A DNA stretch of 45,013 nt from Methanomassiliicoccaceae archaeon UBA354 (GTDB lineage: Archaea > Thermoplasmatota > Thermoplasmata > Methanomassiliicoccales > Methanomethylophilaceae). A model generated the notes under the pieces. That model ran no database searches. It worked only from the letters and a program-made list of their open reading frames with translations, and was not told the origin of the DNA. Shown here piece after piece: positions 4,001-43,883 of this stretch (position 1 is the first letter of the stretch; each line of letters begins with the position of its first letter). The position numbers and the translations under genes were made by a program. Location of the stretch: contig DAMX01000033.1 of NCBI GenBank assembly GCA_002497195.1, positions 5,634 to 50,646 on the forward strand, written 5' to 3'.

Positions 4001-4439
4001 CGAACAGAACGTCCACGAACTCGGTCCCGTTTTCATTCCTTTTGATCTTCACGTCGGCGATCCCTTCCAGAGGGGCGACGAGTATCCCTTCGGTCAGAAC
4101 GGCCAATCCCACTCTGATGGCCCTTTCGAGCGATTTCTCGGTGCTTTCCGCCGGACGGTGGGCCATCTCCTTGGCCACCATAAGGGAAACCAGCTCCCTG
4201 TTCTTGTACTCGGAGGTGAGGCGCCTGATGTCCTCGGCGACGCCTTCGACGTCGAATTCGTGGAGAAGTTTCTCCACGCGGGACGCGAGGTCCTCCGCCT
4301 GGGGCACTTCCACATAAGGTTCGGGGTCGACCCCCAGTATCCTGGCCTGATTCGCTACCGCGTAGCAGATGTCCTTCTGCCTCGAAAGTTCGGAGAAGTA
4401 ATCGTACATCTCCTTGCTCGCGGCCGGACCCTCACTCAT
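1050..4439 (-). CDS. polC: DNA polymerase II (PolD) large subunit DP2
   Basis: 1129-aa ORF. N-terminus MYDYFSELSRQKDICYAVANQARILGVDPEPYVEVPQAEDLASRVE, zinc-binding CxxC pairs (CTKCGK..CRDC; CVKCGEKYRR..CYKCG) and a length typical of DP2 without an intein. Stop is TGA. Confidence 0.93.
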   Translation of the reverse strand: MSEGPAASKEMYDYFSELSRQKDICYAVANQARILGVDPEPYVEVPQAEDLASRVEKLLHEFDVEGVAEDIRRLTSEYKNRELVSLMVAKEMAHRPAESTEKSLERAIRVGLAVLTEGILVAPLEGIADVKIKRNENGTEFVDVLFAGPIRAAGGTAQAMSVLIADVVRRELNLGRYIPTDQEIARFDEEIPLYKQSQHLQYSPTSQEIDLIVRNCPIMIDGEGTEDIEISGFRDLPRIETNNVRGGACLVIAEGLCQKAAKLKKHVDTLKIDGWDFIGKYLEAHAPAKAADEEDMVKTVQPKDTYLLDIVAGRPIFGHPIRAGGFRLRYGRARTAGLAALAFSPASMYAMEEFMAIGTQLKIERPGKACVVTPCDQLDGPIVLLDNGDLVYCATREEVQEIRKRIVTIVDSGEVLVPFGEFCENNQKLVPPGYCIEWHRQELRSKGELPEDWKEPTYARAKEMCSDLGVPLHPRYNLFWSDFDVQTLNGLRDYIAENGSFDTGNISVPLDKDIKKILENLGALHRLRNGRIAVSDRYGEPMIDCLGLSVSEGRIVKRGEFAGDAPLEAVSSAAGFEVRGRGGTRVGMRMGRPEKADAREMTPSVHSLFPVGMDMDANRELISAIASSRKSASGSRSSNTDIQLEVGARRCTKCGKVTWRSWCRDCEAHAIYDPKHKSFNQIGGAHTMPVNLDEELAAACSLIGENRPKSLKCVKGLTSKKKVPEALEKGILRAKNDVTVYKDGTVRYDMTDIPLTHFKPKEIELTVEKAIELGYTHDWNGVPLTDPDQICELKVQDIVPPRECGDFMVKIAAFVDDELERLYKLRRYYNVTGREQLIGHIVFGLAPHTSGGILCRIIGYSTARGCFGHPFFHAAKRRNCDGDEDCIILAMDALLNFSFSFLPDRRGGLMDAPLVLTTRLDPNEIDKEAHNVDCLREYPLELYNAAMNMADPKTIDKIMDLVAGRIGTAAQYEGVGFTNDTDNISEGPRFSAYITLQSMTDKMDAQLSLAKKIRAVDERDVATRVINKHFLPDMAGNLRSFSAQKFRCVKCGEKYRRIPITGKCYKCGNGLTMTVYKGSVMKYLEVSKRIGEEYGLDDYTRERIDILEMSMNSVFNNDKVKKCTLSDFF

Positions 4440-5415
4440 CCTCTGCCACCACCAGAGCTCTCAGCTTGTCGATAATGAGGCTTCTGATCGTCTCCATGTT
4501 CTCTCCGGTCTGCGCGGAGAAGAAAAGGTTATCGCCGCCGGTCTTCATAATGTCGGATTTTCCTTCGGCCACGATTATCTCCACGCCGCTGAAGCCCTCC
4601 TGCACGGACTCAAGGAGCGCGGTCTGTTTTTCCATCGAATAACCGCAGGTCTCCGACGGGTCGAGGACGAATATCATGATGTTGGTGAGGTATCTCAGTG
4701 CGAGGACGGCCTGCTTCTCGATGTCGTTGCGCTCTTCGAAGCTTCTGTCGAGAAGGCCAGGAGTATCGATTATCTGATACTTCCTCCAGTCATCTTCGAT
4801 GTGCCCCACGATTATGCCCTTGGTTGTGAAAGGGTATGGCGCTATCTCGGGAGTGGCTGTGCTCATTGCAGTGACGAGACTGCTCTTGCCCACGTTGGGA
4901 AATCCCGCTATAACGACCGTCGGAACGTCCGCATGTATCGCGGGCAGGTGCCTGAATTTGTTCTTGGCCTCCTGGAGGAACAGCAGGTCCGAGGATATCT
5001 GGCGGATGTATGAAGACATCCTGCCGTAGAAGCTGTTCCTCGTAGAGTCGATGTACGAGACGTCCTTGCTGCGCCTTATCTCGCGAAGGCTTTCGTTCTT
5101 GAGCTTATCCGTCCGTCCGGCCGCCCAGTTGAGGGCCCCCAGGGCTTTTTTGTATCGGTCTATGCCGATTATCAGGTCCACAAGCTGAGGGAAGAAATCG
5201 TCCTCCTTGTCCATCCTGGGAAACCGTTCCACGTAACCATTGAGAGTGGTGACCACTATGTCGCCGGAGGCGGTGACCTTGGCCAAAGCGGTCTTTTTCT
5301 TCCCGTCGAGGGCGTTGGTGCCGCGCTTCGAGATCTTAGCGGCTCTGCTGTAGGCCTTGTCCATCAGCTCCTCGGAAGTAAGGACGGTCGGTATTTTGCG
5401 CTCCAGGGAAGCCAT
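4432..5415 (-). CDS. Nog1/NOG-family GTP-binding protein
   Basis: P-loop GFPNVGKSSLV, DTPG motif, and a Nog1-like N-terminus KIPTVLTSEELMDKAYSRA. The start is set at ATG 5415 (MASLERKIPTV...). The ORF also extends to ATG 5460, which would give an ATGA overlap with the upstream gene. The 3' end overlaps the polD start by 8 nt. Confidence 0.85.
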   Translation of the reverse strand: MASLERKIPTVLTSEELMDKAYSRAAKISKRGTNALDGKKKTALAKVTASGDIVVTTLNGYVERFPRMDKEDDFFPQLVDLIIGIDRYKKALGALNWAAGRTDKLKNESLREIRRSKDVSYIDSTRNSFYGRMSSYIRQISSDLLFLQEAKNKFRHLPAIHADVPTVVIAGFPNVGKSSLVTAMSTATPEIAPYPFTTKGIIVGHIEDDWRKYQIIDTPGLLDRSFEERNDIEKQAVLALRYLTNIMIFVLDPSETCGYSMEKQTALLESVQEGFSGVEIIVAEGKSDIMKTGGDNLFFSAQTGENMETIRSLIIDKLRALVVAEDE

Positions 5416-5456
5416 AAAATAGTGATGTGCATCGCGTATAATAAACAACCCCCGCG

Positions 5457-8400
5457 TCATGCCTCCCCTATGACGGCCCTTATAAGCCAGAGGTCGGACT
5501 TCAGTTCAGGGTCTGCATCCATCTTGCGGGGCAGGAGGGCAGAGGGGCAGTCCTCTATCAGGACTCCGGCGTTGACCGACCACCTGCCTGCATCCTTTCC
5601 GAAGGCGGCGCATAGACCGGAGATGTTGCTGGAGATATAGACTCCGAGTTTGACGTCTGGCACAAGGCTGTCTCCGTCGAGGAACTTCGGAGCCTTCATC
5701 CCTGTATACGCCGTAACGGCCAGGTCTATGTTTTCATAGAGCATGGTCCCTGCGTCGATGCCGTAGGGGTTCTCCATGTTGAAAAGCAGGGCCTCGATCT
5801 CTCCCACGAGATATTTGATGGCATCTCCTACGGTCTTCGAATCGATCGACAGGGCTATTCTGATACCCGTGGCAGTCGTTCCCGCTACATCGGAAACTTC
5901 GAAAGAGATGAAGATCGAAGCTTCCACGAGACACCCGGCTATCCTGTCGATGGTAGCGTCTATGGCGTCCTGAACGGCCCTCTGGATGAACAGGCTCAGA
6001 TCCTCGGTGCCCTTCAGGACGCCGTCCATGTCCTCGAGCGTCCTCACAGCGGATTCCTTGAAGATATCCAGCATATGTCCTTTGATCATGTCGCCTTTGA
6101 CCAGTCCTCCGCAGTTTCCCGCGAGAGGGGTGCCCTTTGCGAACGTCCAGTCCACGGCCCCGTCAGCGACCCTCTGCCAGGTGTAGCTGCTGTTATGGGT
6201 GTCTTTTTCTACAGGTGTCCTGTCTATTTCCATGCCCTCACGGTTTTTCAGAACAACGCAGTCTCCCGACAGAGATTCGTTTTTATCGTTCAGCAGCCTG
6301 ACGTGTTTCTCCAGCACCACGAGCAGTCTCTCATGGGGCACCATCTCGTAGTCTCCCAGCACCATCACCTTGGTCTTCTCGTTCGACCCCGCGCATATCA
6401 TGAATCCGGATATGTCGGCAGTGCGGTTCGACGAGTTGTAAAGTTCCACCCACTCCTCTCCGGAATCTTCTCCGGCGGGATTCGATTCGAATTCGTTCAC
6501 GACAACGCCGGCTTCGAAAGGAATGTTGTATTTAAGCTCCAGCCCGGCATCAAGGCTCCCCTTCAGCCCGAGGGCGGGCAAGGGGATGTTAGAAAGGGCC
6601 GTACCTATCCCCTCTATGTCTGAAAGGCGGACTCCCGCTTCCCTGTACTGCACCAGATCGGGCATGACTACGTCGAAGGAAGTTCCGCGGACCTTCCCGC
6701 TTACGGTCACCAGATGGTCGGAGGACTTCATCAACGGATCCAGATCGAGATCCAGGTCCCAGTCCTCCCCTGAAACCTCGGCGCCTCCCGTTATGAAATA
6801 TTCTCCTCCTCCGGCCGAGTCCTTTTCCTTAACGGTCATACCGCAATCGATTTCGAGCCCGCCGATCTCCCCAGACAGCCTGACGGTCAGAAGGTTCCTC
6901 ACGCTCTTGACGAAAGAGACCACGTCGGTGGAGAACGTCAGAGTGAGGCCCATGAACGACATTCCTACGGTCTGTTTCTTCATCGTGGCGCTGAATATGA
7001 ACTCGGTCATATTCGCAAAACCTCCGATAGACCTGTTCAAAAGACCTTCCAGATGCTGGTCTATGAATTCTCGGAGCTCCGTTATCGGACCCATTACCGA
7101 CTCGTAAAGCCTCTCTATGACCCTGGCGACATACTTCGAAACCTCCAGCAGCGCCGAGTTGATAACGGCGATGACCTCCCTCACCATGGAGAATATCTCG
7201 ACCAGAGGTCCCAAAAGGGGCTCCAGCGCCTTGGTCAGAAGCGTCCAGCCGTCGCTGAAAAGAGTGTTGCTAGCCCTATAAGAGGAGATGCCCGAAAGCC
7301 CCCATCCGCTGAAAACCGCTATCTTCAAGTCGATGTCGACGGGCACTTCCCCGGAGAACGAAGAGTCTTTGACGCCCATCAACGAAGATACGGGACCAGA
7401 TCCTTCCGCGGTATAACGTATCGTATCATGAACGCTCGCCCTGAAAACCGTGCAGTACGATGCACCCCTGTTCTCGTTGAACCCCACATAATGTACGCAT
7501 TCGGAAAGGTTCTCGTTAGGGCCGTACATCCTTATGTCGGGAGACTGGACATAATCGGCTGAGATCGTCTCTCTTGACCTCCCGTCCTCGCCTTCAAGAA
7601 CAAAACAATCCTCTGCTGGCACATTTATAACTCCGCAGTATGGGTTCATGTACATGTTCCGGCACATCTCATCGCAGAGGTTGATCATCCTTTCGGGGAT
7701 GTCGTTGACGGCCGCAAGCATGGGCATGGCCTTTTCGCATATCATTGTCAGGAACTTTTTCATCAGCCCGCATTGACCGTCGGGGACCGTCATCAAAGCG
7801 TCGAACTTCTTCAGCATCTCCCGTGCCGCCGCCTCGTAATCGGTCACCGTCTTCCCTTCCACGGATGCAGACCAAAGCGAGTCCATAAGGTATGCCTTCT
7901 CCTCGTCTGTCAATAGATCTGTGTCAAGTGACCTCCCTACGCTTTCGAAATCTATGGCGTCCGCGATCCTATTTTTCAGAACGTCCACGCCGAATGCGCT
8001 TTCAAAGTTGTTCGTAAGCTGGCCGCAGATCGCAGCATAGAACGGATCGTATATCGTCTGACTCCTTATCGAGCTGTTCACGACCCTTTCAACATCCGAG
8101 TCAAGTTTGGAAAGGGAGCCGTTGACGGCCCTCCTTATGCCCTCAGAGAACGGCTCCTGGTCCCCTCTGTCCACCGATACGGCGATCTGTCCCACGGAGC
8201 GGTCCGCACCGATGTTGATGGCGGCAGTGTTCAGGACGCCTCTTATCCACTCTCTGACCTCGTTGTTCTGGAGCCTGTATTCGCTCTTGAAATTGCTGAG
8301 TCCCCCCCACTTCAGGATGTCCACGTCCGGGTATTTCACAAGTGCATTGTAACCTCCGACGCTGAACGTCCTCTGTTCTCCGTCGATCTCCTTGGTAACC

Positions 8401-9512
8401 GTGAACTCGGGAATATAACAGTCTGCCGCCCTTCCGTTCCAGAGATATCTGTATTCGTTCTCGGTGTGTCCTTTGGACTCCATTATCTCCCGTATGTAAG
8501 GCGAAGCGGACATCGTGTCCTTGCCGGTGAAGAAATTAACTACGGAGTCCCAGGCGTTCCTGATACGGTCAGATGCCCCGTCCAAAAAATCCACCACCAG
8601 GTTTCCGCAGAAATAATCTGCCCACTGAAGAACTATATCGTCAAGCACCGAAATCAGCGCCTGGGCGTAGATGGCCCCCAGGTCGATCCTTATCATTCCG
8701 TCCTCCGCAGCCAGGCAATCGGCCAGGTCCAGATTCCCGGTCAGGCGGTTCTTTTCATCAAGTGGGGTCCTGAAGTTGATCGTTCCAATCGCGGAAACAC
8801 AGCTTATGTACGATGCTTCCACATCTTCGGAGGTGATTATCCGGTCGGTCCCCATACTTCCAAAAGTCGCGGCCGAACCATATCCGGAGATCACCCTTTG
8901 CTGTGCCAGTGCCGTCAATTGATATGTCATCATCTGCGAAAGCACGGAACCCTCTCCTCCTAGGCAGATCTCGAAAAGGGAGCCCTGTTCGGCCACCAGA
9001 GGCAACGCGCAGCTCCCGTCAGAAGATATTGGGACGGTCCTTTCCGCGGACCCGGAATCGCTTTCGAACCTTGCGGTGAAATGGCCGGTCGCCTTCAGAT
9101 AGGTGGGCTTATAGCCGTCGCCTTCCAAGTTCATGTTCTCGGAGGTCATCCTAACTGAGAAATCCAATACGGCGACACTGACGCATCCGTCTTTGGAAGG
9201 GAACTGCGAATTCATCCATTTTTCTGCTGAAACCACGAATTTATCGGCCCTTGAAGACAATGTGCCAGCACTTGCATCGTTCCCTATCGAGGCGATAATC
9301 TCGCCCATTCCTCTGTTGACGAATATTTCGGTATCGCGTACCGATATTCCTATCGAATTTATCTCCTCGTCGACGTCCTCTGCGTTATCTCCGGCCTTTT
9401 CGGCCTGTGCGGCCGCAACGGTATATGCCAGGCTTATCGCCAGGATGGTAACCGCGATGATTGCGAACGGCATGTTCCCCCGTCTGTCCCCCGCGTATGC
9501 GCCCCCTCTCAT
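5457..9512 (-). CDS. Very large membrane-anchored protein of unknown function with a lamin-tail-like (LTD) domain
   Basis: Continuous ORF of up to 1364 aa: TTG start at 9551, ATG at 9512 (chosen here, giving 1351 aa) or ATG at 9473. The N-terminus has a positively charged region then a hydrophobic helix (RRGNMPFAIIAVTILAISLAYTVAAA). The LTD-like segment VVNEFESNPAGEDSGEEWVELYNSS...GDCVVLKNREGMEIDR...SYTWQR is encoded at about 6114-6506. The rest has no motif I recognise. Confidence 0.8.
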   Translation of the reverse strand: MRGGAYAGDRRGNMPFAIIAVTILAISLAYTVAAAQAEKAGDNAEDVDEEINSIGISVRDTEIFVNRGMGEIIASIGNDASAGTLSSRADKFVVSAEKWMNSQFPSKDGCVSVAVLDFSVRMTSENMNLEGDGYKPTYLKATGHFTARFESDSGSAERTVPISSDGSCALPLVAEQGSLFEICLGGEGSVLSQMMTYQLTALAQQRVISGYGSAATFGSMGTDRIITSEDVEASYISCVSAIGTINFRTPLDEKNRLTGNLDLADCLAAEDGMIRIDLGAIYAQALISVLDDIVLQWADYFCGNLVVDFLDGASDRIRNAWDSVVNFFTGKDTMSASPYIREIMESKGHTENEYRYLWNGRAADCYIPEFTVTKEIDGEQRTFSVGGYNALVKYPDVDILKWGGLSNFKSEYRLQNNEVREWIRGVLNTAAINIGADRSVGQIAVSVDRGDQEPFSEGIRRAVNGSLSKLDSDVERVVNSSIRSQTIYDPFYAAICGQLTNNFESAFGVDVLKNRIADAIDFESVGRSLDTDLLTDEEKAYLMDSLWSASVEGKTVTDYEAAAREMLKKFDALMTVPDGQCGLMKKFLTMICEKAMPMLAAVNDIPERMINLCDEMCRNMYMNPYCGVINVPAEDCFVLEGEDGRSRETISADYVQSPDIRMYGPNENLSECVHYVGFNENRGASYCTVFRASVHDTIRYTAEGSGPVSSLMGVKDSSFSGEVPVDIDLKIAVFSGWGLSGISSYRASNTLFSDGWTLLTKALEPLLGPLVEIFSMVREVIAVINSALLEVSKYVARVIERLYESVMGPITELREFIDQHLEGLLNRSIGGFANMTEFIFSATMKKQTVGMSFMGLTLTFSTDVVSFVKSVRNLLTVRLSGEIGGLEIDCGMTVKEKDSAGGGEYFITGGAEVSGEDWDLDLDLDPLMKSSDHLVTVSGKVRGTSFDVVMPDLVQYREAGVRLSDIEGIGTALSNIPLPALGLKGSLDAGLELKYNIPFEAGVVVNEFESNPAGEDSGEEWVELYNSSNRTADISGFMICAGSNEKTKVMVLGDYEMVPHERLLVVLEKHVRLLNDKNESLSGDCVVLKNREGMEIDRTPVEKDTHNSSYTWQRVADGAVDWTFAKGTPLAGNCGGLVKGDMIKGHMLDIFKESAVRTLEDMDGVLKGTEDLSLFIQRAVQDAIDATIDRIAGCLVEASIFISFEVSDVAGTTATGIRIALSIDSKTVGDAIKYLVGEIEALLFNMENPYGIDAGTMLYENIDLAVTAYTGMKAPKFLDGDSLVPDVKLGVYISSNISGLCAAFGKDAGRWSVNAGVLIEDCPSALLPRKMDADPELKSDLWLIRAVIGEA

Positions 9513-9653
9513 GACAGTGCGATCCGCCGCAGGCAGACTTAATGGCCACAACAGCAGTTAGCATACGCAGAGCATCCGAAACGGAATGAAACCGACACGG
9601 AGTATTATTAATAGAAAGAATATTACGTGTGCATTAATTCGAAGAGGATAACC

Positions 9654-11276
9654 ATGTCTTCAACAACACAACCTAGCGCACTCAAGAAGGGACTTCCCAA
9701 GAAGACGGAATCGGTCTGTCCAGAATGTGGAAAGATTATTGAAGCGAACGTCTATGAGAAGGACGGCAAAGTGTTCATGGACAAAGATTGCCCCGAACAC
9801 GGACAGTTCTCCGATATATATTGGTCCAATGCCCAGGCGTACCTCCGGGCCGAGCACTTTGCATACGACGGGGTCGGCCTCAGGAATCCACATGACAAAT
9901 CGCTCGCGGCAGGGGAGAACGTAAACTTCCTTGTGGACGGAAAGAAATACAACCTTCTGTCCTGTACGGCCCTGGCCCTTATCGATCTGACGAACAGATG
10001 TAACATGAACTGCCCGATATGCTTCGCCAACGCTAACCAGGCCGGATATGTTTACGAACCCTCTTACGATGAGGTGGTGGCGATGATGGAGGCACTCCGC
10101 GCGGAGGAGCCCATCAAGTGTACCGCTGTCCAGTTCTCCGGAGGAGAGCCCACCGTCCACCCGAGGCTGGCGGACATAATCAGAAAGTCCAAGGAGCTGA
10201 AATTCGCACAGGTCCAGGTGGCCACCAACGGCATCGTATTCGCAAAGGACTATGAGAAACTGAAGGCATGCAAAGAGGCGGGCCTGAACACGATATATCT
10301 CTCCTTCGACGGTGTAAGCGACGACGTCTACCTTCAGGCCAGGGACAGGAAGATGTTCGACATAAAGCTGAAGGTGATCGAGAACTGCAGAAGGCTCAAG
10401 GCGGAAATCGGCCACTCGCCGTCCATCGTCCTCGTGCCCACGCTGGTCAGAGGGGTCAACGACCACCAGGTAGGAGCCATAACCAAATTCGCCTTCGATC
10501 ACGCCGATGTGATCCGCGGAATCAACTTCCAGCCTGTGGCCTTCACGGGCAGGATAACCAGGGAAGAGGTTTCCAAGGGCAGGATAACCCTCACGGACCT
10601 GGTAGACAGGTTCGGCGAGCAGACCGGATACACGGTGCCGGAGGACTGGTACCCTGTCCCTGTCGTGGCTCCGATATCCAACTTCGCCTCGGAGTTCCTG
10701 TCTCAGAACAAGGTAACGTTCACCGCCCACCCCCACTGCGGCCTGGCGACATACCTGTTCCAGTCCGAGGACGGAAAGGTAACGCCGCTCCCCAGGTTCG
10801 TCGACATAAAGATGTTCTCCGACGGCCTGAGCAGCATAGCCATGAAGATGGAGGATTCCAAATTCAGGAAGATCAGGGCGATCGGCGTGCTGAGGCTTCT
10901 GAACAAATGCGTAGACAGCAGCAAGATGCCTCCCGGCATGACCAAGAAGAAGTTCATCGATGCCATAACGAGCATAATGGGTAGCAAATCCAAGAAGACC
11001 CTCGCCAATTTCTCGTGGAAGATGATGTACGTCGGAGCCATGCATTTCCAGGATTCGTTCAACTACGACGTCTCGAGGGTCGAGCGCTGCGCAATTCACT
11101 ACATAACACCGGACCTGAAGGTAATACCCTTCTGCGCATACAACGGCGGGCCGGAATATCGTGCAGAGGTCGAAGCCCGCTTCTCGATCCCGCTCGCGGA
11201 GTGGAAACAGCGGAACAAGGAAGAGGCGAAGGCGCTGGAAGAAGCATTGGTGGTCCCCGAGGACCAGAGAGCTTGA
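9654..11276 (+). CDS. tes: Radical SAM protein, candidate tetraether lipid synthase (Tes/GDGT-MAS family)
   Basis: Radical-SAM motif CNMNCPICFA. N-terminal zinc-ribbon CPECGK..x..CPEHG. About 540 aa from ATG 9654, which is preceded by gaggat; the ORF track starts at an upstream GTG at 9627. It is followed directly by ferredoxin and geranylgeranyl reductase, the arrangement I recall for Methanosarcina acetivorans MA1486-MA1485-MA1484. Confidence 0.65.
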   Translation: MSSTTQPSALKKGLPKKTESVCPECGKIIEANVYEKDGKVFMDKDCPEHGQFSDIYWSNAQAYLRAEHFAYDGVGLRNPHDKSLAAGENVNFLVDGKKYNLLSCTALALIDLTNRCNMNCPICFANANQAGYVYEPSYDEVVAMMEALRAEEPIKCTAVQFSGGEPTVHPRLADIIRKSKELKFAQVQVATNGIVFAKDYEKLKACKEAGLNTIYLSFDGVSDDVYLQARDRKMFDIKLKVIENCRRLKAEIGHSPSIVLVPTLVRGVNDHQVGAITKFAFDHADVIRGINFQPVAFTGRITREEVSKGRITLTDLVDRFGEQTGYTVPEDWYPVPVVAPISNFASEFLSQNKVTFTAHPHCGLATYLFQSEDGKVTPLPRFVDIKMFSDGLSSIAMKMEDSKFRKIRAIGVLRLLNKCVDSSKMPPGMTKKKFIDAITSIMGSKSKKTLANFSWKMMYVGAMHFQDSFNYDVSRVERCAIHYITPDLKVIPFCAYNGGPEYRAEVEARFSIPLAEWKQRNKEEAKALEEALVVPEDQRA

Positions 11277-12666: not shown

Positions 12667-12700
12667 CCGGCCTCACGGCCGGAAAGATTATTTTTATATT
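12667..12700. terminator. Bidirectional terminator-like hairpin flanked by T-runs, between convergent GGR and mvk
   Basis: ccggcc(12667-72) tcac ggccgg(12677-82) forms a perfect 6-bp stem. A T5 run lies at 12691-12695 on the + strand. aaaacaac (12657-64) gives a T-run on the - strand. Confidence 0.45.
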
Positions 12701-13632
12701 TTGTCTCCCGCCGTCACCCCGGGCACGCCGGTCTTCACGATCATGGGGTTTCCTCCGTGGAGGCGGATCGTCTCGCATACCTTTTCGGGCCTGTCGGTAA
12801 GGGCGATCATGCTCCCTCCCCCTCCTGCGCCCGTCAGCTTGGAGCCGTAGGAGTATTCGGCCGCCGCATCGACCAGACGGTTGAGCTCTGGGCTCGACAC
12901 CCCAAGGATGGACAGCAGTTTGTGGTCTGCCGTCATTAGCCTCCCCAGTTTCACACGGTCGTTCCTCCGGAGCGCATCGGCACCCTCCAGGGTCACCGAG
13001 CCTATCTCTTCTACGATATCTTTGGCGAAACTGTTGCGGTCCTTGTATCTGCGGACCTTTTCCACCAGGGGGCCCGTAAGGGCCTTGATCCCCGTATATC
13101 CGACAACGAACGTCATCTCGGGAGCATGGACGTCGCAGACGTTCCACCTGTTCCCGTTGCGTTCTATCGTCCACAGGGGTTCGCCTTCGCATGGTATGTT
13201 CACTCCGATGCCCCCTCCGTGGACGGAGGCGGAAGTGTCCATAGGGCTTCCGATGCCCTGGGCTCCGAACTCGGCCTCGTAGGCTTCGTTGATTATATCC
13301 TTTTCATCGGCGGGCCTTCCCAGCATTGTGCGCACCGCGCACGACAGGGCGGCCGAAAGGGCGGCGGAGGAACCTAGACCTGACCCGGAAGGCAGGTCGC
13401 TCTCGGTCACGATGCTGATACTGTCTACGCCGTTCGCTTTCAGTACGTGGCGCATGTGGGGATGGAGCGAAAGGTCCTCCGGCATCCCGTTGAGAAGAAG
13501 CCTGTCGCTGTCGCTCACGGTGCAACGGAAGCGTCTGTCGATCGCCAGTGCGACCGCGGGTTTGCCGTAGACCACGGCGTGCTCTCCCAGGACCACGAAT
13601 TTCCCAGGTGCCGATGCGGACGCCGATCTCAT
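12694..13632 (-). CDS. mvk: Mevalonate kinase
   Basis: APGKFVVLGEHAVVYGKPAVALAID, GHMP kinase motif PSGSGLGSSAA, and C-terminal KLTGAGGGGSMIAL. The start is set at ATG 13632, which makes an ATGA overlap with the upstream gene's stop. Stop is TAA. Confidence 0.9.
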   Translation of the reverse strand: MRSASASAPGKFVVLGEHAVVYGKPAVALAIDRRFRCTVSDSDRLLLNGMPEDLSLHPHMRHVLKANGVDSISIVTESDLPSGSGLGSSAALSAALSCAVRTMLGRPADEKDIINEAYEAEFGAQGIGSPMDTSASVHGGGIGVNIPCEGEPLWTIERNGNRWNVCDVHAPEMTFVVGYTGIKALTGPLVEKVRRYKDRNSFAKDIVEEIGSVTLEGADALRRNDRVKLGRLMTADHKLLSILGVSSPELNRLVDAAAEYSYGSKLTGAGGGGSMIALTDRPEKVCETIRLHGGNPMIVKTGVPGVTAGDKI

Positions 13633-18687: not shown

Positions 18688-19692
18688 TTAGAAAGGCACG
18701 AGCGACAGAAGATAGTCGCGTATTTCTTTCTCTTCTTCGCTCAGACCACCCTTTGATTGTTCCACGTAGGTTTCCCAGAGGAACATGAAATAGTCATGGA
18801 ACGCCGCAACGGCCTCGTTCCAGTTGGGCTTCGAAGCGGAAATTCCCACCAGGTCGTTGGTCAGGGTCCATTTGCGGGTATTTCTGTCGAAAGAAACGTC
18901 AGCGGCCATCGGATTTAGAAGTGCCAGGTCTGAATCGGGAGTTATGATGCGTTTGAAGACTATTCCCGGGAAATCGCCCACTCCGCAAACGTCCCTGACC
19001 TCTACGATGTTCTCTTCATCGTCAAGAACCGCCATTCCGGACACCAGACACGGTCCCGCACGGGAATACGAGTCTGCGGTCCTTTCGGGAAAATCCTTTC
19101 CGGTGGTTATCTTCGACGTACGGTCTCCGGAATCGAGATAGTATGCGTTGCGGCCCTTCATGTCGCTCTTCCTGCAGACGGCCCCGGCAAGAGCACAGGT
19201 GAAAGTCCTCGTTTCGGCGCCGGCGCTTTCGCCGAAGCGTTCCGGACGGGCGTTGAAGAGCTCCCTCATCCTTCTTCCGCGCCCATAGCTGAGCCTGCAG
19301 CCCTCCAGGTCGACGCAGAGCTTCATAAGGTCTTTGGCGACGGCCGCCCTGTATCGGGGGTCGGTGTAATTCTCCGAAAGCCAGCGGTTGATTATGTCGC
19401 TTCCCGCCACGTCGAGGGTCTCTTCGAGCTTCACCAGGGCGACGTTGAGCAGGGAGTTCTCGTCGGGCCTGCGCTCCCTGGGTTCGATGCCCAGATCGAA
19501 CTTGGACCCGAATCCCTCGGGAGCCTTGCCCTGCAATCCCATCTCTGCGGTCACGATGAACATCCCAATGTGAGAAAGCATGCTCTGGATATCCTTTATG
19601 ACGAGGTCCGCCTGTTCTGCGGTAACTTCGTTCCCTACATCGGGGACCACTTTGAAAGTCAGAGTATCCATACCGGCGAAAGCGCAATGCAT
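18688..19692 (-). CDS. Hypothetical protein (327-334 aa), no recognisable domain
   Basis: Long ORF with a TAA stop. Possible starts are ATG 19692 or ATG 19671 (MDTLTFKV...). It is transcribed divergently from rpl10e. I cannot assign a family motif. Confidence 0.6.
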   Translation of the reverse strand: MHCAFAGMDTLTFKVVPDVGNEVTAEQADLVIKDIQSMLSHIGMFIVTAEMGLQGKAPEGFGSKFDLGIEPRERRPDENSLLNVALVKLEETLDVAGSDIINRWLSENYTDPRYRAAVAKDLMKLCVDLEGCRLSYGRGRRMRELFNARPERFGESAGAETRTFTCALAGAVCRKSDMKGRNAYYLDSGDRTSKITTGKDFPERTADSYSRAGPCLVSGMAVLDDEENIVEVRDVCGVGDFPGIVFKRIITPDSDLALLNPMAADVSFDRNTRKWTLTNDLVGISASKPNWNEAVAAFHDYFMFLWETYVEQSKGGLSEEEKEIRDYLLSLVPF

Positions 19693-19880: not shown

Positions 19881-20396
19881 ATGGTAAGAAAGCCCGCATC
19901 GATGTACAGAGAAATTAAAGGACAGGCGTATACTCGCCGCGAATACATGGGAGGAGTGCCCGCAAGCAGGCTCAGCCAGTTTGAGATGGGAGACCTCAAG
20001 GCAGACTTCCCGATCAAGATCACGCTCAGAGTGGAGAACAGGGTCCAGATAAGGCACACCGCGCTGGAGTCCGGACGTATAGCCGCCAACAGAGTGCTGG
20101 GCAAGCTCGGAGTCAGCAACTACCACTTCACGGTCAGGACGTACCCTCACATGGTACTCAGAGAGAACAAGATGGCTACGGGAGCAGGTGCAGACCGTGT
20201 TTCCAGCGGAATGCGCAACGGTTTCGGAAAGAACGTCGGAACGGCCGCCAGGCTCGAGCGCGGACAGGCCGTGTACACGATCCGTTGCACCCCTGCCGTA
20301 TTCAACTCCGCCAAAGACGCTCTTTGGAGAGCATCCATGAAAATGCCCTCTCCCTGCTACATTGATGTGGAAGAGGGTAAGGAATACGCCAAGTGA
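19881..20396 (+). CDS. rpl10e: 50S ribosomal protein L10e (uL16)
   Basis: MVRKPASMYREIKGQAYTRREYMGGVPASRLSQFEMGD. ATG 19881 is preceded by aggtggtg (SD-like). The stop TGA 20394-96 overlaps the dph2 ATG by 1 nt. Confidence 0.9.
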   Translation: MVRKPASMYREIKGQAYTRREYMGGVPASRLSQFEMGDLKADFPIKITLRVENRVQIRHTALESGRIAANRVLGKLGVSNYHFTVRTYPHMVLRENKMATGAGADRVSSGMRNGFGKNVGTAARLERGQAVYTIRCTPAVFNSAKDALWRASMKMPSPCYIDVEEGKEYAK

Positions 20397-21379
20397 TGTT
20401 CGACCTGGAGCTCGAACGGACCGCTCGGTGGATAAGGTCTAACGGCTATTCCAGAGTGGCTGTTCAGCTCCCGGAGGGACTCAAGCTCAGAGCATCGGAG
20501 ATCTCCGACGCCCTGGGCTCTGCAGGCGCCGAGGTGATAATCGTCGGGCGCCCTTGCTATGGCGCCTGCGACTATTATTCAGATTTCAGGAGGGTCGCGG
20601 ATGCGCTGGTCCATTACGGCCATTCCGCCATGCCGTCGCTGGGCAGCGACCCCGACGTCCTTTTCATCGAGGCCCGCGCCGATTGTTCCATCGCCGGGCC
20701 ACTCGGGGAATGTGTAGGAATGCTTCCCCGGAACGTAGGAGTGCTTGCGTCCGTCCAGTACATCGACCTGATCCCCGAGGCCGTGGGGATCATAGAATCG
20801 TCGGGAAGGAAAGCCTTCGTCTCCGCCGGGGATAAGCGCATAATGTATCCGGGCCAGGTCCTCGGCTGCGACTGCAGCGCCGCGGAAGCGGTCTCGGATT
20901 CCGTGGACGCATTCCTTTTTCTGGGAGAGGGTGATTTCCACCCGCTGGCGGCCGCTTTCGGCACGGAAAAGGAGCTTTTCGTTCTCAATCCCGTAACCGG
21001 CGATATGAGGAGCGTCGAGAGCATCAAGGACCGCATTCTAAGGAGGCGTTTCGGATCGATAGCCATCGCCTCCGAGGCAGAAAGATTCATGATAATCATA
21101 TGCAGCAAGGCGGGGCAGAATCGTTCTTAGGAAGCGGAGATGATCGCGGAGAAGATCAGAGGCGCGGGAAAAAAGGCGTACACAATACTTCTGGACGAGA
21201 TAAACCCCGATACACTGGCACATTACCGTGTCGATGCCTTTGTGAACACGGCATGCCCCCGTATCGCCATGGACGAGTCAGCGAGATTCAGCAAGCCGGT
21301 CCTGACGATCCCTGAGGCCGAGATAGCCCTGGGACTTCGCGACTGGGAAGATTATGAGTTCGATGCCATACGCCGCTGA
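20396..21379 (+). CDS. dph2: 2-(3-amino-3-carboxypropyl)histidine synthase Dph2 (diphthamide biosynthesis, radical-SAM-type [4Fe-4S] enzyme), interrupted by one in-frame TAG at 21128-21130
   Basis: The two track ORFs 20393..21130 and 21140..21379 are in the same frame and separated only by TAG. The joined product, about 327 aa, has the normal Dph2 length. The three cluster-Cys contexts are present: GRPCYGACDY, GQVLGCDCS and, downstream of the TAG, VNTACPRIAMDE (Cys codon 21254-56). The sequence across the TAG reads SKAGQNRS-TAG-EAEMIAEKIRGAGKKAYTILLDEI. Confidence 0.8.
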
Positions 21380-21436: not shown

Positions 21437-22180
21437 ATGGTAACGTCGGAAGAGTTCCTTTCCGGACCGTTGCCCGATGCCCGGGTCGGCATCGGCCGTG
21501 GGTCGGACATGGGGAATGTGGAGAGGAGCGCCGAAGCCTTCGAACGCGGATGCGTAACTATATACGGAAACCCCGCCGAACTCGTCGAAGACCTGATGTC
21601 CGGGAAGATAGATGCCGCCGTGCGCGGCGACATGTCGTCCTCCGTCCTGTTGCCGATGCTCAAGCAGGTGCTGGGCATAAAAGCGCTCGAAAGGGTGGTC
21701 CTAATGGGGCCTCCCGGCGGGAAGCTATTCCTGCTTTCCCCCGTGGGGATCGACGAGGGGTGGACCGTCCAGCAGAGGTTCGGACTGGCCGTGAGCTCCG
21801 TGGGGCTTGCGCGCAAGATAGGCCTCGGGACCAGGATCGCCGTCATGTCGGGAGGAAGGTGCGAGGACTACGGAAGATGCAGGGCTGTGAACAGCAGCAT
21901 CGACGATGCCCGTTCGCTTGTGAAGATGCTTACCGAAAAGGGTTACGACGCATATCATTCCCAGATACTGATAGAGAATGCGGTGAGGGACGCCGATATA
22001 GTTATCGCGCCCGAGGGCATATCCGGCAATCTGCTGTTCAGGGCGATGCACCTGGTCGGCAACACCATGGCGCTCGGGGCGCCGATAGTCAACATCGAAA
22101 AAGTGTTCGTGGACACGTCCAGGGCGAAAACGGACTATCGCGACTCGATAGCTCTGGCCCTTAGGCTTACGGAGAGATGA
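21437..22180 (+). CDS. mtxX: MtxX-like protein (methanogenesis marker 4 family candidate; phosphate acyltransferase-like fold)
   Basis: Motifs recalled from MtxX proteins: KIDAAVRGDMSSS, FLLSPVGIDEG, AVMSGGRCEDYGRC, PEGISGNLLFRAM and VFVDTSRAK. The stop overlaps the queD start (ATGA at 22177-80). Confidence 0.65.
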   Translation: MVTSEEFLSGPLPDARVGIGRGSDMGNVERSAEAFERGCVTIYGNPAELVEDLMSGKIDAAVRGDMSSSVLLPMLKQVLGIKALERVVLMGPPGGKLFLLSPVGIDEGWTVQQRFGLAVSSVGLARKIGLGTRIAVMSGGRCEDYGRCRAVNSSIDDARSLVKMLTEKGYDAYHSQILIENAVRDADIVIAPEGISGNLLFRAMHLVGNTMALGAPIVNIEKVFVDTSRAKTDYRDSIALALRLTER

Positions 22181-27681: not shown

Positions 27682-28263
27682 ATGAAGCTCATTGCGATCA
27701 ACGGCAGCCCTCGCCTTATAGGGAACACGTCCAACATCATCATGGACATGCTCGACATCTTCTCCAGGGAGGGCATCGAGACGGAGCACATCCAGCTGTA
27801 CGCTTACAATTTCATCCCGTGCAATGACTGCAGGTCATGCGAGATGAGGGGCGATGGGAGATGCATCAACGAAGAAGACGGCTTCAACGAACTGCTGGAC
27901 AAGCTGAGGGAGGCCGACGGGATCGTTTTCGCCAGCCCGTCGTACTATGGCGGCGTGACGGGACAGATGAAGATATTCATGGAAAGGGCGGGGCTTTCGC
28001 TCGAAACGGGCGACATGGGCCTGAGGCGCAAGGTCGGAGGCGCCATCGCGGTGGCCGCACACGACGGAGCGTCCGCCGCATATTCCCAGATGGTCAACTT
28101 CATGCTGCGTAACCAGATGGTGGTCTGCGGGTCCACCCCGCACACCACGTTCAGGGCCTTGAACCCGCCACAGTTCTCCGCGGACAAGGATGCAGTCAAA
28201 GCCGTCTCGATATTAGCGGGAGAAATGGTCTGGGCGATGGAGCGTCTCGGTCAGAAGAAGTAA
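27682..28263 (+). CDS. isf: Iron-sulfur flavoprotein (Isf-like, NADPH-dependent FMN reductase/flavodoxin fold)
   Basis: MKLIAINGSPRLIGNTS, the compact Cys motif CNDCRSCEMRGDGRC (CX2CX2CX7C) characteristic of Isf proteins, and FASPSYYGGVTGQMK. The start is set at ATG 27682. Confidence 0.8.
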   Translation: MKLIAINGSPRLIGNTSNIIMDMLDIFSREGIETEHIQLYAYNFIPCNDCRSCEMRGDGRCINEEDGFNELLDKLREADGIVFASPSYYGGVTGQMKIFMERAGLSLETGDMGLRRKVGGAIAVAAHDGASAAYSQMVNFMLRNQMVVCGSTPHTTFRALNPPQFSADKDAVKAVSILAGEMVWAMERLGQKK

Positions 28264-28973
28264 AGTCCGCATCCTTCTTCGACGCAGATCTTGGCTACGG
28301 CCTCCATCCTGTCGACCGGGCCGGAGTACCTGCGGACCATCATCTTTCCCTCTTCGGGCAGCGCCTTCCTTAGGGTCTCGACCTCTTTCAGCAGCTCGGC
28401 GGCCTCTTCGGGGGCGTATATCCTGTGGGAGGCCGCACCCTCGGGCACCGAAGCCGTGATCGCGCATCCATGCTTGGCGGCAATGCCCGGCAGAAGGCTG
28501 TCGTCAGGTCCGAAAGAACCTATGCATCCTCTCCCCTTGTCCCATGAGACCGGACACCTGGCACATGTATCTCTCATCTCATCGAAAGAGATCAGCTCCC
28601 ATTCCGTGGTCCGATTCTCGGGCAGGGAATTCTTCAAAGCTTCTTTCCGGGAATCCTCGCCGAGCCCCTCGAAGTCCACCCATCCGGAGAAGCGTCTCTC
28701 CGAGAGGGGTTCCAGGGCGGCCAGGTCTCCGCCGTCGGTAAGGAGGTCGATATGTACGATGTCCGTGTCCTTGCTGAGCTTGTTCCTCTTGAGGAACGCT
28801 GTCCAGTCGCCAACTGCATCTACGGCGCACTGCTTCGAGACTGTTCGATATATTTCCGCGGCCTCCCCGAACTCCTCGGGGTTCCCCACGAGCACCCTTA
28901 CCGTCTTCAGCTTCATTTCCCTGCAGAGGGCGCTTTGGCACTCCGTCTCCCTGATCGCAATATTGATTCCCAT
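28251..28973 (-). CDS. Hypothetical cytoplasmic Cys-motif protein (240 aa)
   Basis: ORF with Cys pairs ECQSALC, CARCPVSWDKGRGC and CVEEGC, and no TM segment. It starts 12 nt downstream of the preceding membrane-protein gene. Its 3' end overlaps convergent isf by 13 nt. Confidence 0.6.
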   Translation of the reverse strand: MGINIAIRETECQSALCREMKLKTVRVLVGNPEEFGEAAEIYRTVSKQCAVDAVGDWTAFLKRNKLSKDTDIVHIDLLTDGGDLAALEPLSERRFSGWVDFEGLGEDSRKEALKNSLPENRTTEWELISFDEMRDTCARCPVSWDKGRGCIGSFGPDDSLLPGIAAKHGCAITASVPEGAASHRIYAPEEAAELLKEVETLRKALPEEGKMMVRRYSGPVDRMEAVAKICVEEGCGLYFF

Positions 28974-29521: not shown

Positions 29522-30577
29522 TCACACACCTCCCGCTTCCATCACCTGCTTGATAAGGTCGAGCATCTGCGCATACTCCTCCTGCGTAAGCTCGATCACC
29601 TCGGTGTCGGGCGATACGCCGATCTCGATGGTGTAATCTCCCTCGTCATATTGGTCCTGGAGCTCGTCTACGATGTTCACCGTTCCGTCGCCCATCTCTA
29701 CGGAGAATCCGCCGGGCCCGTTCACTATGGTGACATTTATGGCGCCAATGGTCGCCGTGACGTTAAGGTCTGACGGGAGCTGCTCTATCGGCTCGGTCGA
29801 AGTGATTGATATCTGAGTGGCGGCGATGTCCACGTCGGGGGCATCGGTGGTGGACTCGAACACGGCGGTCGCATATACGCTGGCCCCCGCAAGCCCGTAA
29901 AGGTAATTTCCGGAAATGTCAAATCCCATGTAGATGCTCATGGTGTCGCCCGATCCGGTGAGCATTATGAGCGCGCTGTTAAGGCTGTTGATGCTTATGT
30001 CGACGGGCAGGGAACAGGTCTCTCCGGTCTTTATCGTGGTGGGTTCGCTCTCTGCCACCCTGTAGCTCACAGTACCGGTGTCGTTGAGCTGGTCTACTCC
30101 GATCGCTATGTCCATCAGGTCGTACCTGAGGCGGTTGGTTATCGAGATCTCGGTGTACATGTTAGTGGTGATCTCGTTGCTTTCCTTCATTATCATCATC
30201 TGGGTCAGAACCGTGCCGTCGTTGTCTTTGAGGGTCACAGTGGTAACGCCGGGATGCAAAACGGCGTAGGCCTTGACAGCTGTCACAGCCGCGGTCACGC
30301 TGGCATCGTCATCCGGATAGATCGTGGTACCTGGTATCTTCACGCCGGCTTCCGTGTACGCGTCGGCGGGACCCTCGTGATTATCCACGGCATCAGAGAA
30401 ATTGTACTCCAATATCCCGTTGGATTCCGATACTTCGTATGTGCTTTCCGCTTCGAGCTTGATATCCAAAGGCATCTCGCCCGTGTTCTGCGGTATGAAT
30501 CCGAGTGCTACAAAAAGTATGAGTCCGGCGATTGCCAGGGCATAGACGGCGTGCATAATGACGCTGAAGGCCTTCAC
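29522..30577 (-). CDS. Hypothetical N-terminally anchored/exported Thr-rich protein (351 aa)
   Basis: N-terminal hydrophobic helix HAVYALAIAGLILFVALGFI, followed by a Thr/Ser/Asp-rich sequence predicted to be mostly beta. Start is GTG 30577 (alternative ATG 30556). A TATA-like tttaaa lies about 27 nt upstream of the GTG on the - strand. Confidence 0.6.
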   Translation of the reverse strand: MKAFSVIMHAVYALAIAGLILFVALGFIPQNTGEMPLDIKLEAESTYEVSESNGILEYNFSDAVDNHEGPADAYTEAGVKIPGTTIYPDDDASVTAAVTAVKAYAVLHPGVTTVTLKDNDGTVLTQMMIMKESNEITTNMYTEISITNRLRYDLMDIAIGVDQLNDTGTVSYRVAESEPTTIKTGETCSLPVDISINSLNSALIMLTGSGDTMSIYMGFDISGNYLYGLAGASVYATAVFESTTDAPDVDIAATQISITSTEPIEQLPSDLNVTATIGAINVTIVNGPGGFSVEMGDGTVNIVDELQDQYDEGDYTIEIGVSPDTEVIELTQEEYAQMLDLIKQVMEAGGV

Positions 30578-41339: not shown

Positions 41340-42668
41340 ATGCCAAAATACGAGGACGTAATTGACTTGTATGACGACAACGGAAAACGCATCGCCAAAG
41401 ATATTCCGTTGGAAGCCATCAGTCCGTTGCGCAACAAAGCGATCCAGAAGATCGGAGACCTCACCAAGAGGACGTGCGCCGTCAATCTAGCCGGTATCGA
41501 GAAAGCTCTCAAGACCGGTTCGATGATGGGCATGACCATCAAGGGAAAAGAGATCGACATCCCCCTGGTCGCAAACGCTGAGAAGATCGCAGCCGCTGTC
41601 AAGGAAATGATTCAGGTAACCCCCGACGACGACACAATCGTCAAAGTGAAATCCGGAGGAAAGAGCATGATCGTCGTTCTCCCCAACGAGAGAGCGAACG
41701 TCGGTATCGAGTACACCACGGGATTCACTTCTACCGCCGCCGCGGTAACCGAGGCGATCATTGACGAGTTCAAGATCCCCATGTACAAGGCGAACATGGT
41801 GAAAGGGGCAGTATGGGGGAGATACCCTCAGACCGTCAACTTTTTAGGTTCCAACATAAAATCCATCCTCGAAGTTCCTCAGAACAACGAAGGTGCCGGA
41901 TACGCTCTCAGGAACATCATGTCCAACCACGTCGTCGCACTGGTCGGCAGGAACGCAATGCAGGGCACAGCTCTGTCCGCGATCTTCGAGCAGACCGCCG
42001 CATTTGAGATGGGCGACGCTGTGGGACCCTTCGAGAGAGGACACCTCCTCGGACTCGCATATGAGGGACTCAACGCCAACAACATGCTGTACTCCATAGT
42101 TAAGAAGAACGGAAAGACCGGAACCGTCGGAACCGTCATCGAATCCCTCATGGAGAGGGCCATCGACGACAAGGTCATCCGCGTGAAAGAGACCCTTCCG
42201 TCCGGATACAAGGTCTACACGACCGACGACCTCCCCCTCTGGAACGCATATGCGGCAGTCGGACAGGTCGCAGCGGTCATGGTGAACGTCGGAGCGGCAA
42301 GGGCCGCCCAGGGTGTTCCCTCAACGATCCTGTACTACAACGACCTGCTCGAGCACGAGACCGGACTCCCCGGTGTCGACTACGGAAGGTCGATGGGTGT
42401 TTGCGTCGGAATGTCGTTCTTCTCCCACTCCATCTACGGTGGAGGCGGACCCGGACTGTTCCACGGAAACCACGTTGTCACCAGGCACTCCAAGGGTGTT
42501 CTGATCCCCGCCGTTACAGCAGGAAACTGCCTTGACGGTGGAACGCAGACCTTCTCCGCAGAGGCCACGTCCGGAACCTTCAAAGAGGTCTTCGGAGACA
42601 TGGACGAATTCCGCCACCCCATTCAGGTCGTAGCGGCTGAGGCAAAGAAAATAAAGAAGAAGGTCTGA
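41340..42668 (+). CDS. mcrB: Methyl-coenzyme M reductase beta subunit
   Basis: 442 aa. [32 protein letters not shown] and the conserved [28 protein letters not shown]. Confidence 0.95.
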
Positions 42669-42674
42669 GCATAA

Positions 42675-43103
42675 ATGTCGAGCAATCCCCCAGCGGAATA
42701 TGCGGGCGTGCCCCTCCCTGAAGTGAGGATAACCACGAACCGCCTCCTGAGCGCGGAGACGACCGAAAAGGTCATAAACGGGTTCGAGGAGATCGAGCAC
42801 ATCAGACAGATCACCATGTCGGGCGAGAGCCTGCCTAGCAAGATCAACAGCGGACCCAACAAAGGGCTCGATAACAACCACACGCAACGCCGTTTCGTAA
42901 AGATCGGCGGAAAGGATGTGGAGCTGACCAAACTGGTCGGCTATTTCTTCATCGAGCTCGAAGTCGAGGACGACAAAGTGCTTGACGAGACCGTTGGAAA
43001 GATCAAGGCCGTATGCGATGCGCACATCGCGCACGGATTCAACCTTGAGATTGGAAGATACTCGAAATACAGACCTACTCTTAATGATTACAGAGGTGTT
43101 TAA
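42675..43103 (+). CDS. mcrD: Methyl-coenzyme M reductase operon protein D
   Basis: 142 aa, located between mcrB and mcrG. RLLSAETTEKVINGFEEIEHIRQITMSGESLP...GPNKG fits the McrD pattern. Confidence 0.85.
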   Translation: MSSNPPAEYAGVPLPEVRITTNRLLSAETTEKVINGFEEIEHIRQITMSGESLPSKINSGPNKGLDNNHTQRRFVKIGGKDVELTKLVGYFFIELEVEDDKVLDETVGKIKAVCDAHIAHGFNLEIGRYSKYRPTLNDYRGV

Positions 43104-43105
43104 AT

Positions 43106-43879: not shown

Positions 43880-43883
43880 ATCA

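Follow-up and report, generated by a model that had tools for sequence, protein, structure and literature searches.

Genome-wide decoding of TAG as pyrrolysine (Pyl), including in genes of the essential type, has previously been described for the family Methanomethylophilaceae (PMC4153887; bioRxiv 10.1101/2024.09.30.615893). In the study by Borrel et al. (2014; PMC4153887), TAG accounted for 1.6% of the stop codons in 'Ca. M. alvus' and for 11.3% in M. luminyensis. A total of 16 Pyl proteins that are not methyltransferases were predicted in 'Ca. M. alvus', the methanogenesis marker MtxX was listed as TAG-interrupted in this species, and it was argued that TAG codons in major genes make the expression of Pyl essential (PMC4153887). 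Proteomic data later demonstrated that TAG is read as Pyl in M. alvi and M. burtonii, and the name Genetic Code 34 was given to this code by Kivenson et al. (2024; bioRxiv 10.1101/2024.09.30.615893). In the same study, Pyl was found in 12 of the 15 expressed TAG-containing proteins of M. alvi, with no other amino acid at the TAG position, and 1903 Pyl proteins were predicted, including aminoacyl-tRNA synthetases and DNA polymerases. Nearly all of the new Pyl sites were singletons seen in a single genome and probably neutral, and one archaeal family was stated to be exclusively recoded (bioRxiv 10.1101/2024.09.30.615893). Here, we examined a stretch of 45,013 nucleotides from Methanomassiliicoccaceae archaeon UBA354 (assembly GCA_002497195.1, contig DAMX01000033.1, positions 5,634 to 50,646), referred to below as the window, in which the dph2 gene for 2-(3-amino-3-carboxypropyl)histidine synthase contains an in-frame TAG codon. 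An earlier reading of this DNA, here called the original prediction, had suggested that the TAG is decoded as Pyl, or else that the gene is split, is a recent pseudogene or contains a sequencing error. The dph2 gene is very probably a new instance, in a further genus, of the phenomenon already described for the family, and the case fits the published picture of Genetic Code 34 in every respect that was tested.

The dph2 gene covers positions 20396 to 21379 on the forward strand and consists of 327 codons followed by TGA, with one internal TAG, the proposed Pyl codon, at codon 245 (21128 to 21130). The open reading frames (ORFs) at 20393 to 21130 and 21140 to 21379 share the same frame, and are separated only by this TAG (..CAG AAT CGT TCT TAG GAA GCG GAG ATG..). 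The original prediction of a single TAG that splits dph2, and of a joined protein of the size of Dph2, was borne out. The joined protein matched TIGR03682, the archaeal Dph2 equivalog, with a score of 308 bits against a cut-off of 202.8, in a single match that extended from residue 19 to residue 325 across the TAG, and PF01866 was recorded on both of the dph2 fragments in public contigs. It was colinear with the solved Dph2 structures 6bxm, 6q2d, and 3lzc, and the nearest uninterrupted orthologs, all of 327 amino acids and from metagenome-assembled genomes (MAGs) of Methanomethylophilaceae, were 92%, 85%, and 84% identical to it.

Archaeal Dph2 ligates a [4Fe-4S] cluster with one cysteine from each of three domains. 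The codons for Cys58 in domain 1 (TGC, 20567 to 20569) and Cys158 in domain 2 (TGC, 20867 to 20869) are located before the TAG, whereas the codon for Cys287 (TGC, 21254 to 21256), in the context VNTACPRI, is located after it, as had been predicted for the third ligand. All 3 columns were invariant in ortholog alignments of 24 and of 38 sequences, and we take the 3 residues to be the cluster ligands, as known for Cys59, Cys163, and Cys287 in the Dph2 protein of P. horikoshii. The protein thus resembles the archaeal Dph2 proteins of P. horikoshii (3LZD), Ca. Methanoperedens (6BXM), and M. smithii (6Q2D) in its size, its three-domain architecture, and its 3 invariant cysteines, but differs from them in that a standard residue is present at column 245 in these proteins, which is a lysine in both 6BXM and 6Q2D.

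The original prediction was right in placing the 2 ORFs in a single frame, but the GTG at 20393 is probably not the start of the gene. The ATG at 20396 is the likely start codon; it overlaps the stop codon of the upstream gene for the ribosomal protein uL16 (L10e; 19881 to 20396, forward strand) in the sequence TGATG. The overlap (20394 to 20398) was also seen in a sister species in which the 2 genes are located at positions 9489 to 10001 and 10001 to 10984 of the contig. The arrangement suggests that dph2 may be co-transcribed or translationally coupled with the uL16 gene.

The TAG codon was widely represented in public assemblies. The exact truncated Dph2 sequence of 244 amino acids was indexed in 121 blocks of assemblies from JGI, ENA, NCBI, and Logan; the 244-amino acid product was counted on 49 contigs, the longest of which was 1.04 Mb, and the tail of 79 amino acids on 55 contigs. 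The assemblies were also of different origin, with contigs from SPAdes (NODE_) and MEGAHIT (k119_) as well as UBA MAGs. All 6 of the same-species loci that were fetched carried the TAG, with 0 to 1 nucleotide differences over the gene, and in all 7 distinct public assemblies shown the annotation according to code 11 splits dph2 into pieces of 244 and 79 amino acids. In the cluster of proteins at 90% identity, all sequences of this species' type, namely the main form, 3 variants with single-residue differences, and a fragment, ended in GQNRS; no variant of this species' type with a sense codon was found in the cluster, and all of its members with 327 amino acids belonged to sister species. Furthermore, the flanking DNA of the other same-species assemblies was 0.06% to 0.6% diverged from the window, and the TAG was present in each one that was compared. 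A sequencing or assembly error at position 21129, one of the options in the original prediction, has nothing in its favor except the prior that single-base errors happen, and with the same TAG recovered from 4 sources and by different assemblers in dozens of independent assemblies, we rule it out as having a negligible probability.

Codon 245 is TCG for serine in the 3 closest species and TCA in the next one, and the sister species are 90% to 92% identical in amino acid sequence. The comparison with orthologs that had been proposed in the original prediction thus placed a serine at this column in the sister species. Since the 3 closest species all have TCG, the TAG is, judging from these codons, the product of one C to A transversion at position 21129.

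To examine the usage of stop codons, we compiled a gene set for the window from the gene calls on public contigs of the same species, supplemented elsewhere with ORFs supported by Pfam or NCBIfam. Of these 43 genes, 32 ended in TGA, 11 in TAA, and none in TAG, and the TAG in dph2 was the sole in-frame TAG among them. Another 19 real genes in the same-species flanks of 10 kb per side had TGA or TAA as their only terminators, which gives a total of 0 TAG terminators in 62 genes (about 65 kb of the genome), for which the 95% upper bound is about 4.7%. At the frequency of TAG stops reported for M. luminyensis, a sample of 62 genes would contain none with a probability of about 0.0006. It appears from these counts that TAG no longer serves as a terminator in this lineage, and since none of 27 genes in the sister species ended in TAG, the avoidance of this codon would be older than the mutation in dph2. 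A crude count of the longest ORFs suggested 5 TAG stops, but these were artefacts of ORFs that were in the wrong frame or over-extended relative to the gene calls. A second candidate recoding site, the TAG at 13737 in a stop-to-stop pair of ORFs at 14007 to 12694 on the minus strand, was also rejected; this TAG is located upstream of the true start of a GHMP-kinase gene (12694 to 13632), within the overlapping neighboring gene.

In the classification of Kivenson et al., dph2 falls into Category 1, with homology on both sides of the TAG, and no Category 4 case, in which read-through leads to a long out-of-frame overlap, was found, as there were no TAG-terminated genes among the 62 examined. The locus is similar to Genetic Code 34 as described in M. 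alvi and other Methanomethylophilaceae in that it belongs to the same family, with TAG essentially absent as a terminator and no recoding element, and in that the internal TAG is found in a conserved gene that does not encode a methyltransferase, as a singleton that is specific to the lineage and occupies a position that is not conserved. However, the Pyl residues were demonstrated by proteomics in M. alvi, whereas here the case is built on the sequence, and it comes from a different genus, since the Dph2 proteins of MAGs labelled Methanomethylophilus share only about 58% to 60% identity with the present one. Dph2 is also absent from the 16 Pyl proteins predicted in M. alvus, and no link between Pyl and diphthamide was found in the searchable literature.

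The position of the TAG within the protein was examined by comparison with orthologs from 48 species representatives, among which as many as 9 residue types (S, A, E, D, I, V, T, K, and R) were observed at codon 245. An AlphaFold (AF2) model of the ortholog with 92% identity (mean predicted local distance difference test score 89.7) contained a strand at residues 230 to 235, a loop with the residues GQNR, and a helix at residues 244 to 256, in which residue 245 is the second residue, in the first turn. The TAG is thus located in the helix of a beta-alpha-beta unit away from any domain boundary, in agreement with the original prediction that it falls inside the third domain. Residue 245 is predicted from the model to be exposed, and a bulky residue derived from lysine should be tolerated at this site.

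A second TAG was identified in the dph2 gene of another Methanomethylophilaceae MAG, Ca. Methanoplasma sp. Cf509_bin46 (JAIRPP010000008.1, 3001 to 3984), at codon 105 (..DISSAV-TAG-RAAPSLP..). It is located in a variable segment, and the gene is otherwise intact until the TGA at codon 327. This TAG is independent of that at codon 245.

The Pyl sites of MtmB, MtbB, and MttB are specified by the same codon and presumably by the same tRNA and pyrrolysyl-tRNA synthetase (PylRS), but Pyl has a catalytic role in these proteins, at a position that is conserved in both archaea and bacteria, whereas the column in Dph2 is hypervariable. In Methanosarcina mtmB, a structure resembling a pyrrolysine insertion sequence (PYLIS) follows the Pyl codon. 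No such structure was present after the TAG in dph2: the 120 nucleotides from the TAG folded at -25.9 kcal/mol, as compared to a mean of -25.97 kcal/mol for shuffled sequences (z = 0.02), so that no unusual RNA structure was detected 3' of the TAG, and nothing in this fold resembled a PYLIS or a selenocysteine insertion sequence (SECIS). Another parallel is provided by Thg1, the tRNA-His guanylyltransferase of Methanosarcina acetivorans, a housekeeping enzyme which contains Pyl (cited in bioRxiv 10.1101/2024.09.30.615893). Both cases involve a single UAG in an enzyme that is related to translation rather than to methylamines, and both are accounted for by neutral mutation against a background of UAG suppression. 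The Pyl residue in the Thg1 protein of M. acetivorans is dispensable and has no evident catalytic role. Dph2 is nevertheless another enzyme from another order, and M. acetivorans keeps TAG stops and decodes them ambiguously (PMC12626013).

The model and the alignments also bear on the option of a split gene, according to which translation would stop at the TAG and re-initiate at the ATG at 21140 to 21142 (Met249), where the ORF of 79 amino acids begins, by means of the motifs AGGAAG/GGAG, so that chains of 244 and 79 amino acids assemble into an active enzyme. The ATG is indeed situated 9 nucleotides after the TAG and is preceded by a purine-rich string similar to a Shine-Dalgarno sequence, and the ORF of 79 amino acids was called on public contigs and matches PF01866. 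However, the string GGAAGCGGAG is unchanged in sister species, in which it simply represents the coding sequence for S-E-A-E. The methionine at position 249 is shared by a species that has Ser245 (P0002/L014), and K, R, T, or E takes its place in other relatives; Met249 has therefore not co-evolved with the TAG. Moreover, the cut would fall in the initial turn of the helix in the beta-alpha-beta unit rather than at a domain boundary, and no Dph2 protein that is naturally split at this site was seen among the 48 species. We consider the split to be an unnecessary assumption with little to recommend it, and very unlikely.

Estimates of the ratio of non-synonymous to synonymous substitution rates (dN/dS) in comparisons with 4 sister species ranged from 0.055 to 0.085 for codons 1 to 244 and from 0.02 to 0.10 for codons 246 to 327, and similar values were obtained in control comparisons between the sister species. 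The changes after the TAG that were assigned to the lineage of the window comprised 5 synonymous changes and a single non-synonymous change, which affected the variable last residue. No frameshift or second stop codon was found in dph2 after the TAG. Thus, the 3' part of the gene looks like an expressed and constrained coding region.

Had dph2 recently become a pseudogene, the TAG would terminate translation and yield a Dph2 protein without Cys287 and most of domain 3, with the synthesis of diphthamide lost or being lost. It is in line with such a scenario that an invariant cluster ligand is removed by the TAG, that gene callers annotate 2 fragments, and that some archaea reportedly lack dph genes. 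But the TAG is present in every sampled strain despite a flank divergence of up to 0.6% between two assemblies, the dN/dS values downstream of it are low (0.06 to 0.10), with 5 synonymous changes to one non-synonymous change, and there is no second lesion. The avoidance of TAG terminators is furthermore the signature of an organism that decodes UAG, and dph2 still overlaps the gene for uL16. With the TAG fixed and purifying selection acting downstream of it, recent pseudogenization is in our view improbable.

No pylT, pylS, or pylBCD genes were found in the window. To search public assemblies, we used as a query the PylRS sequence of M. alvus, which was confirmed by a database match of 100% identity, after which the members of the clusters were inspected. 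The best candidate was a complete locus (P0300; copy in GCA_002506995.1, DAYT01000001.1) with the gene order mttB-mttC-mtmB-mtmB-pylT-pylS-pylB-pylC-pylD, in which both mtmB copies contained the canonical TAG at codon 202. The pylT gene of this locus was identified by a position-by-position comparison with the tRNA-Pyl called by ARAGORN on the contig of another candidate (P0229), relative to which it showed compensatory changes; it is 71 nucleotides long, with a CTA anticodon at positions 29 to 31. ARAGORN and Rfam do not call this gene, and a minimum free energy fold alone did not produce a clean cloverleaf.

The P0300 locus was present in the JGI sample 3300038316, which also holds a contig with the dph2-TAG gene. 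It has a GC content of 0.566 to 0.567, and its tetranucleotide correlation with the window was 0.948 to 0.950, as compared to 0.925 to 0.953 for 8.8-kb chunks of the window itself. Two other candidate loci showed a worse fit in composition than P0300 (r = 0.95), namely P0229 (r = 0.888) and P0274 (GC 0.543, r = 0.73). The search for pyl genes suggested in the original prediction thus had a mixed outcome, with none in the window but a complete candidate locus of matching composition in a shared sample. The assignment of this locus to the species is indirect but reasonable, and we infer that the genome carries pylTSBCD.

The contigs with the P0229 variant of PylRS all break about 420 to 530 bp upstream of pylS, inside an mtmB-like 3' end just before pylT. 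This suggests that the repeated mtmB copy fragments short-read assemblies at the pyl locus, and that the pyl genes are therefore hard to link to long contigs. No PylRS protein had a longest contig equal in length to the dph2-carrying contigs of 1,038,573, 539,690, 365,609, and 320,587 bp, and when metagenome contigs were scanned for exact matches to the P0229 pylT sequence, only 3 unrelated contigs from ENA were recovered. It was also noted that the pylB gene in the P0300 locus ends in TAG at 5888 to 5890 (pylB-pylC junction, 5099 to 5950), and that read-through of this codon would add 19 residues until a TGA, with an out-of-frame overlap of about 58 nucleotides with the start of pylC. A C-terminal TAG in PylB has also been noted for M. 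acetivorans (PMC12626013), and the terminal TAG in pylB may be a feedback point for the supply of Pyl.

Taken as a whole, it is likely that UAG245 is read as Pyl to give a full-length, functional Dph2 protein, and that the codon is a neutral singleton that reached fixation by drift. The headline of the original prediction fits a member of the Methanomethylophilaceae with no TAG stops in 62 genes and a candidate pyl locus, and we infer that Pyl is the residue actually inserted at position 245. According to this scenario, TCG would have changed to TAG by one C to A transversion in a Methanomethylophilaceae lineage that already lacked TAG terminators. Because the lineage had stopped using TAG as a terminator, the change would have been close to neutral and could have drifted to fixation. 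The Pyl-tRNA(CUA) would decode UAG245 and thereby produce full-length, functional Dph2 with Pyl in the N-terminal turn of a helix in domain 3, at a position that accepts almost any side chain. The decoding would be free of context, with no local recoding element, as in Genetic Code 34, and a side effect would be that complete Dph2, and hence diphthamide on the elongation factor aEF2, depends on the expression of the Pyl machinery.

Several points weigh against this explanation. The dN/dS values are unable to date the TAG, and a very recent nonsense mutation would leave the same pattern of constraint. Diphthamide is dispensable in some organisms, and the loss of Dph2 need not be lethal. Neither the window nor any contig with a demonstrated physical link to it contained a pyl gene, and the link between the pyl locus and the window consists of one shared sample and a matching composition on different contigs. 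Finally, UAG is ambiguous in Methanosarcina acetivorans, where both truncated and extended forms are produced (PMC12626013), and some truncated Dph2 may by analogy also be made here.

In the event of such ambiguous decoding, aRF1 would terminate some of the translation at UAG245 while Pyl is inserted in the rest, giving full-length Dph2 together with an inactive fragment of 244 amino acids, and the level of active Dph2 would follow the supply of Pyl relative to the demand for it. In M. acetivorans, a TAG-containing protein occurs in a long and a short form, and read-through has been modelled as Pyl supply over demand (PMC12626013); every one of the Pyl archaea that have been examined still has aRF1 (bioRxiv 10.1101/2024.09.30.615893), and no structure that would favor read-through follows the TAG in dph2 (z = 0.02). 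However, M. acetivorans uses TAG far more often and does not have a Code 34 genome, and the lack of TAG terminators in 62 of 62 genes suggests that the organism has ceased to rely on UAG for termination. We regard partial termination as possible but rather doubtful, and as a quantitative refinement of complete Pyl decoding rather than as an exclusive alternative to it.

If UAG245 is decoded as Pyl, Dph2, a modifying enzyme of the translation machinery, joins the proteins that apparently need Pyl to reach their full length, in a Methanomethylophilaceae species outside Methanomethylophilus. The locus provides a clean and widely sampled example of a TAG that has been locked into a translation-related core gene, and it supports the published idea that TAG codons in core genes lock in the Pyl machinery and make the change of code hard to reverse. 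It also represents a trap for annotation: since code 11 splits dph2, completeness estimates and pathway calls for these methanogens will be wrong unless TAG is translated. The first gene downstream of dph2 codes for Mmp4/MtxX (21437 to 22180, forward strand; TIGR03270, 203.9 bits against a cut-off of 190) and is uninterrupted, whereas the gene in M. alvus is interrupted by TAG. The positions of TAG codons therefore differ between genera of the family, and the contrast illustrates the species-specific scatter of these codons.

We also considered whether the TAG in dph2 acts as a coupling device, by which the supply of and demand for Pyl, and hence methylamine metabolism, would adjust the diphthamide modification of aEF2 and, through it, the fidelity of translation, in analogy with the sensor based on read-through efficiency proposed for M. 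acetivorans. The synthesis of full-length Dph2 would then require charged tRNA-Pyl, and the TAG in the dph2 gene of Ca. Methanoplasma would be convergent rather than coincidental. We think it most improbable that the TAG has such a function.

The host is a methyl-reducing methanogen of the gut or digester type within Methanomassiliicoccales, a Pyl-using order, and the family Methanomethylophilaceae. The placement was made because of the best Dph2 matches and the presence of mcrBDGA, mtaA, and mtxX. The closest species representatives by Dph2 were the MAGs CA_2019_TPIn_115, UBA72, and UBA370, which are labelled as Methanomethylophilaceae or Methanomassiliicoccaceae archaeon. The methanogen marker genes mcrB-mcrD-mcrG-mcrA were located at 41340 to 45013 on the forward strand (Pfam MCR_beta, MCR_D, MCR_gamma, and MCR_alpha), with mcrA running off the end of the window. 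The window also encodes an MtaA-type methylcobamide:coenzyme M methyltransferase in addition to MtxX, and its housekeeping genes include those for PolD DP2, RtcB, SerRS, and uL16 as well as queCDE.

Three genes on the minus strand, at 18688 to 19671, 28251 to 28973, and 29522 to 30577 (327, 240, and 351 amino acids, respectively), were conserved and syntenic and were also found in sister species. None of them matched Pfam, and the product of 327 amino acids, which was the only one run against NCBIfam, had no match there either. The 10 kb that were fetched from the region preceding the window on its contig contain an entire archaeal 23S rRNA gene, at positions 1808 to 4724, but no 16S or 5S rRNA gene. 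The ORF of 58 amino acids that has been called inside the 23S rRNA gene on public contigs is spurious. Finally, an ORF of 1364 amino acids on the minus strand (5457 to 9551) showed a weak match to the Lamin-tail domain (34.6 bits) and none to NCBIfam. The called size of its product varies by strain (1338 or 1351 amino acids), and it may represent a surface or adhesin-like protein.

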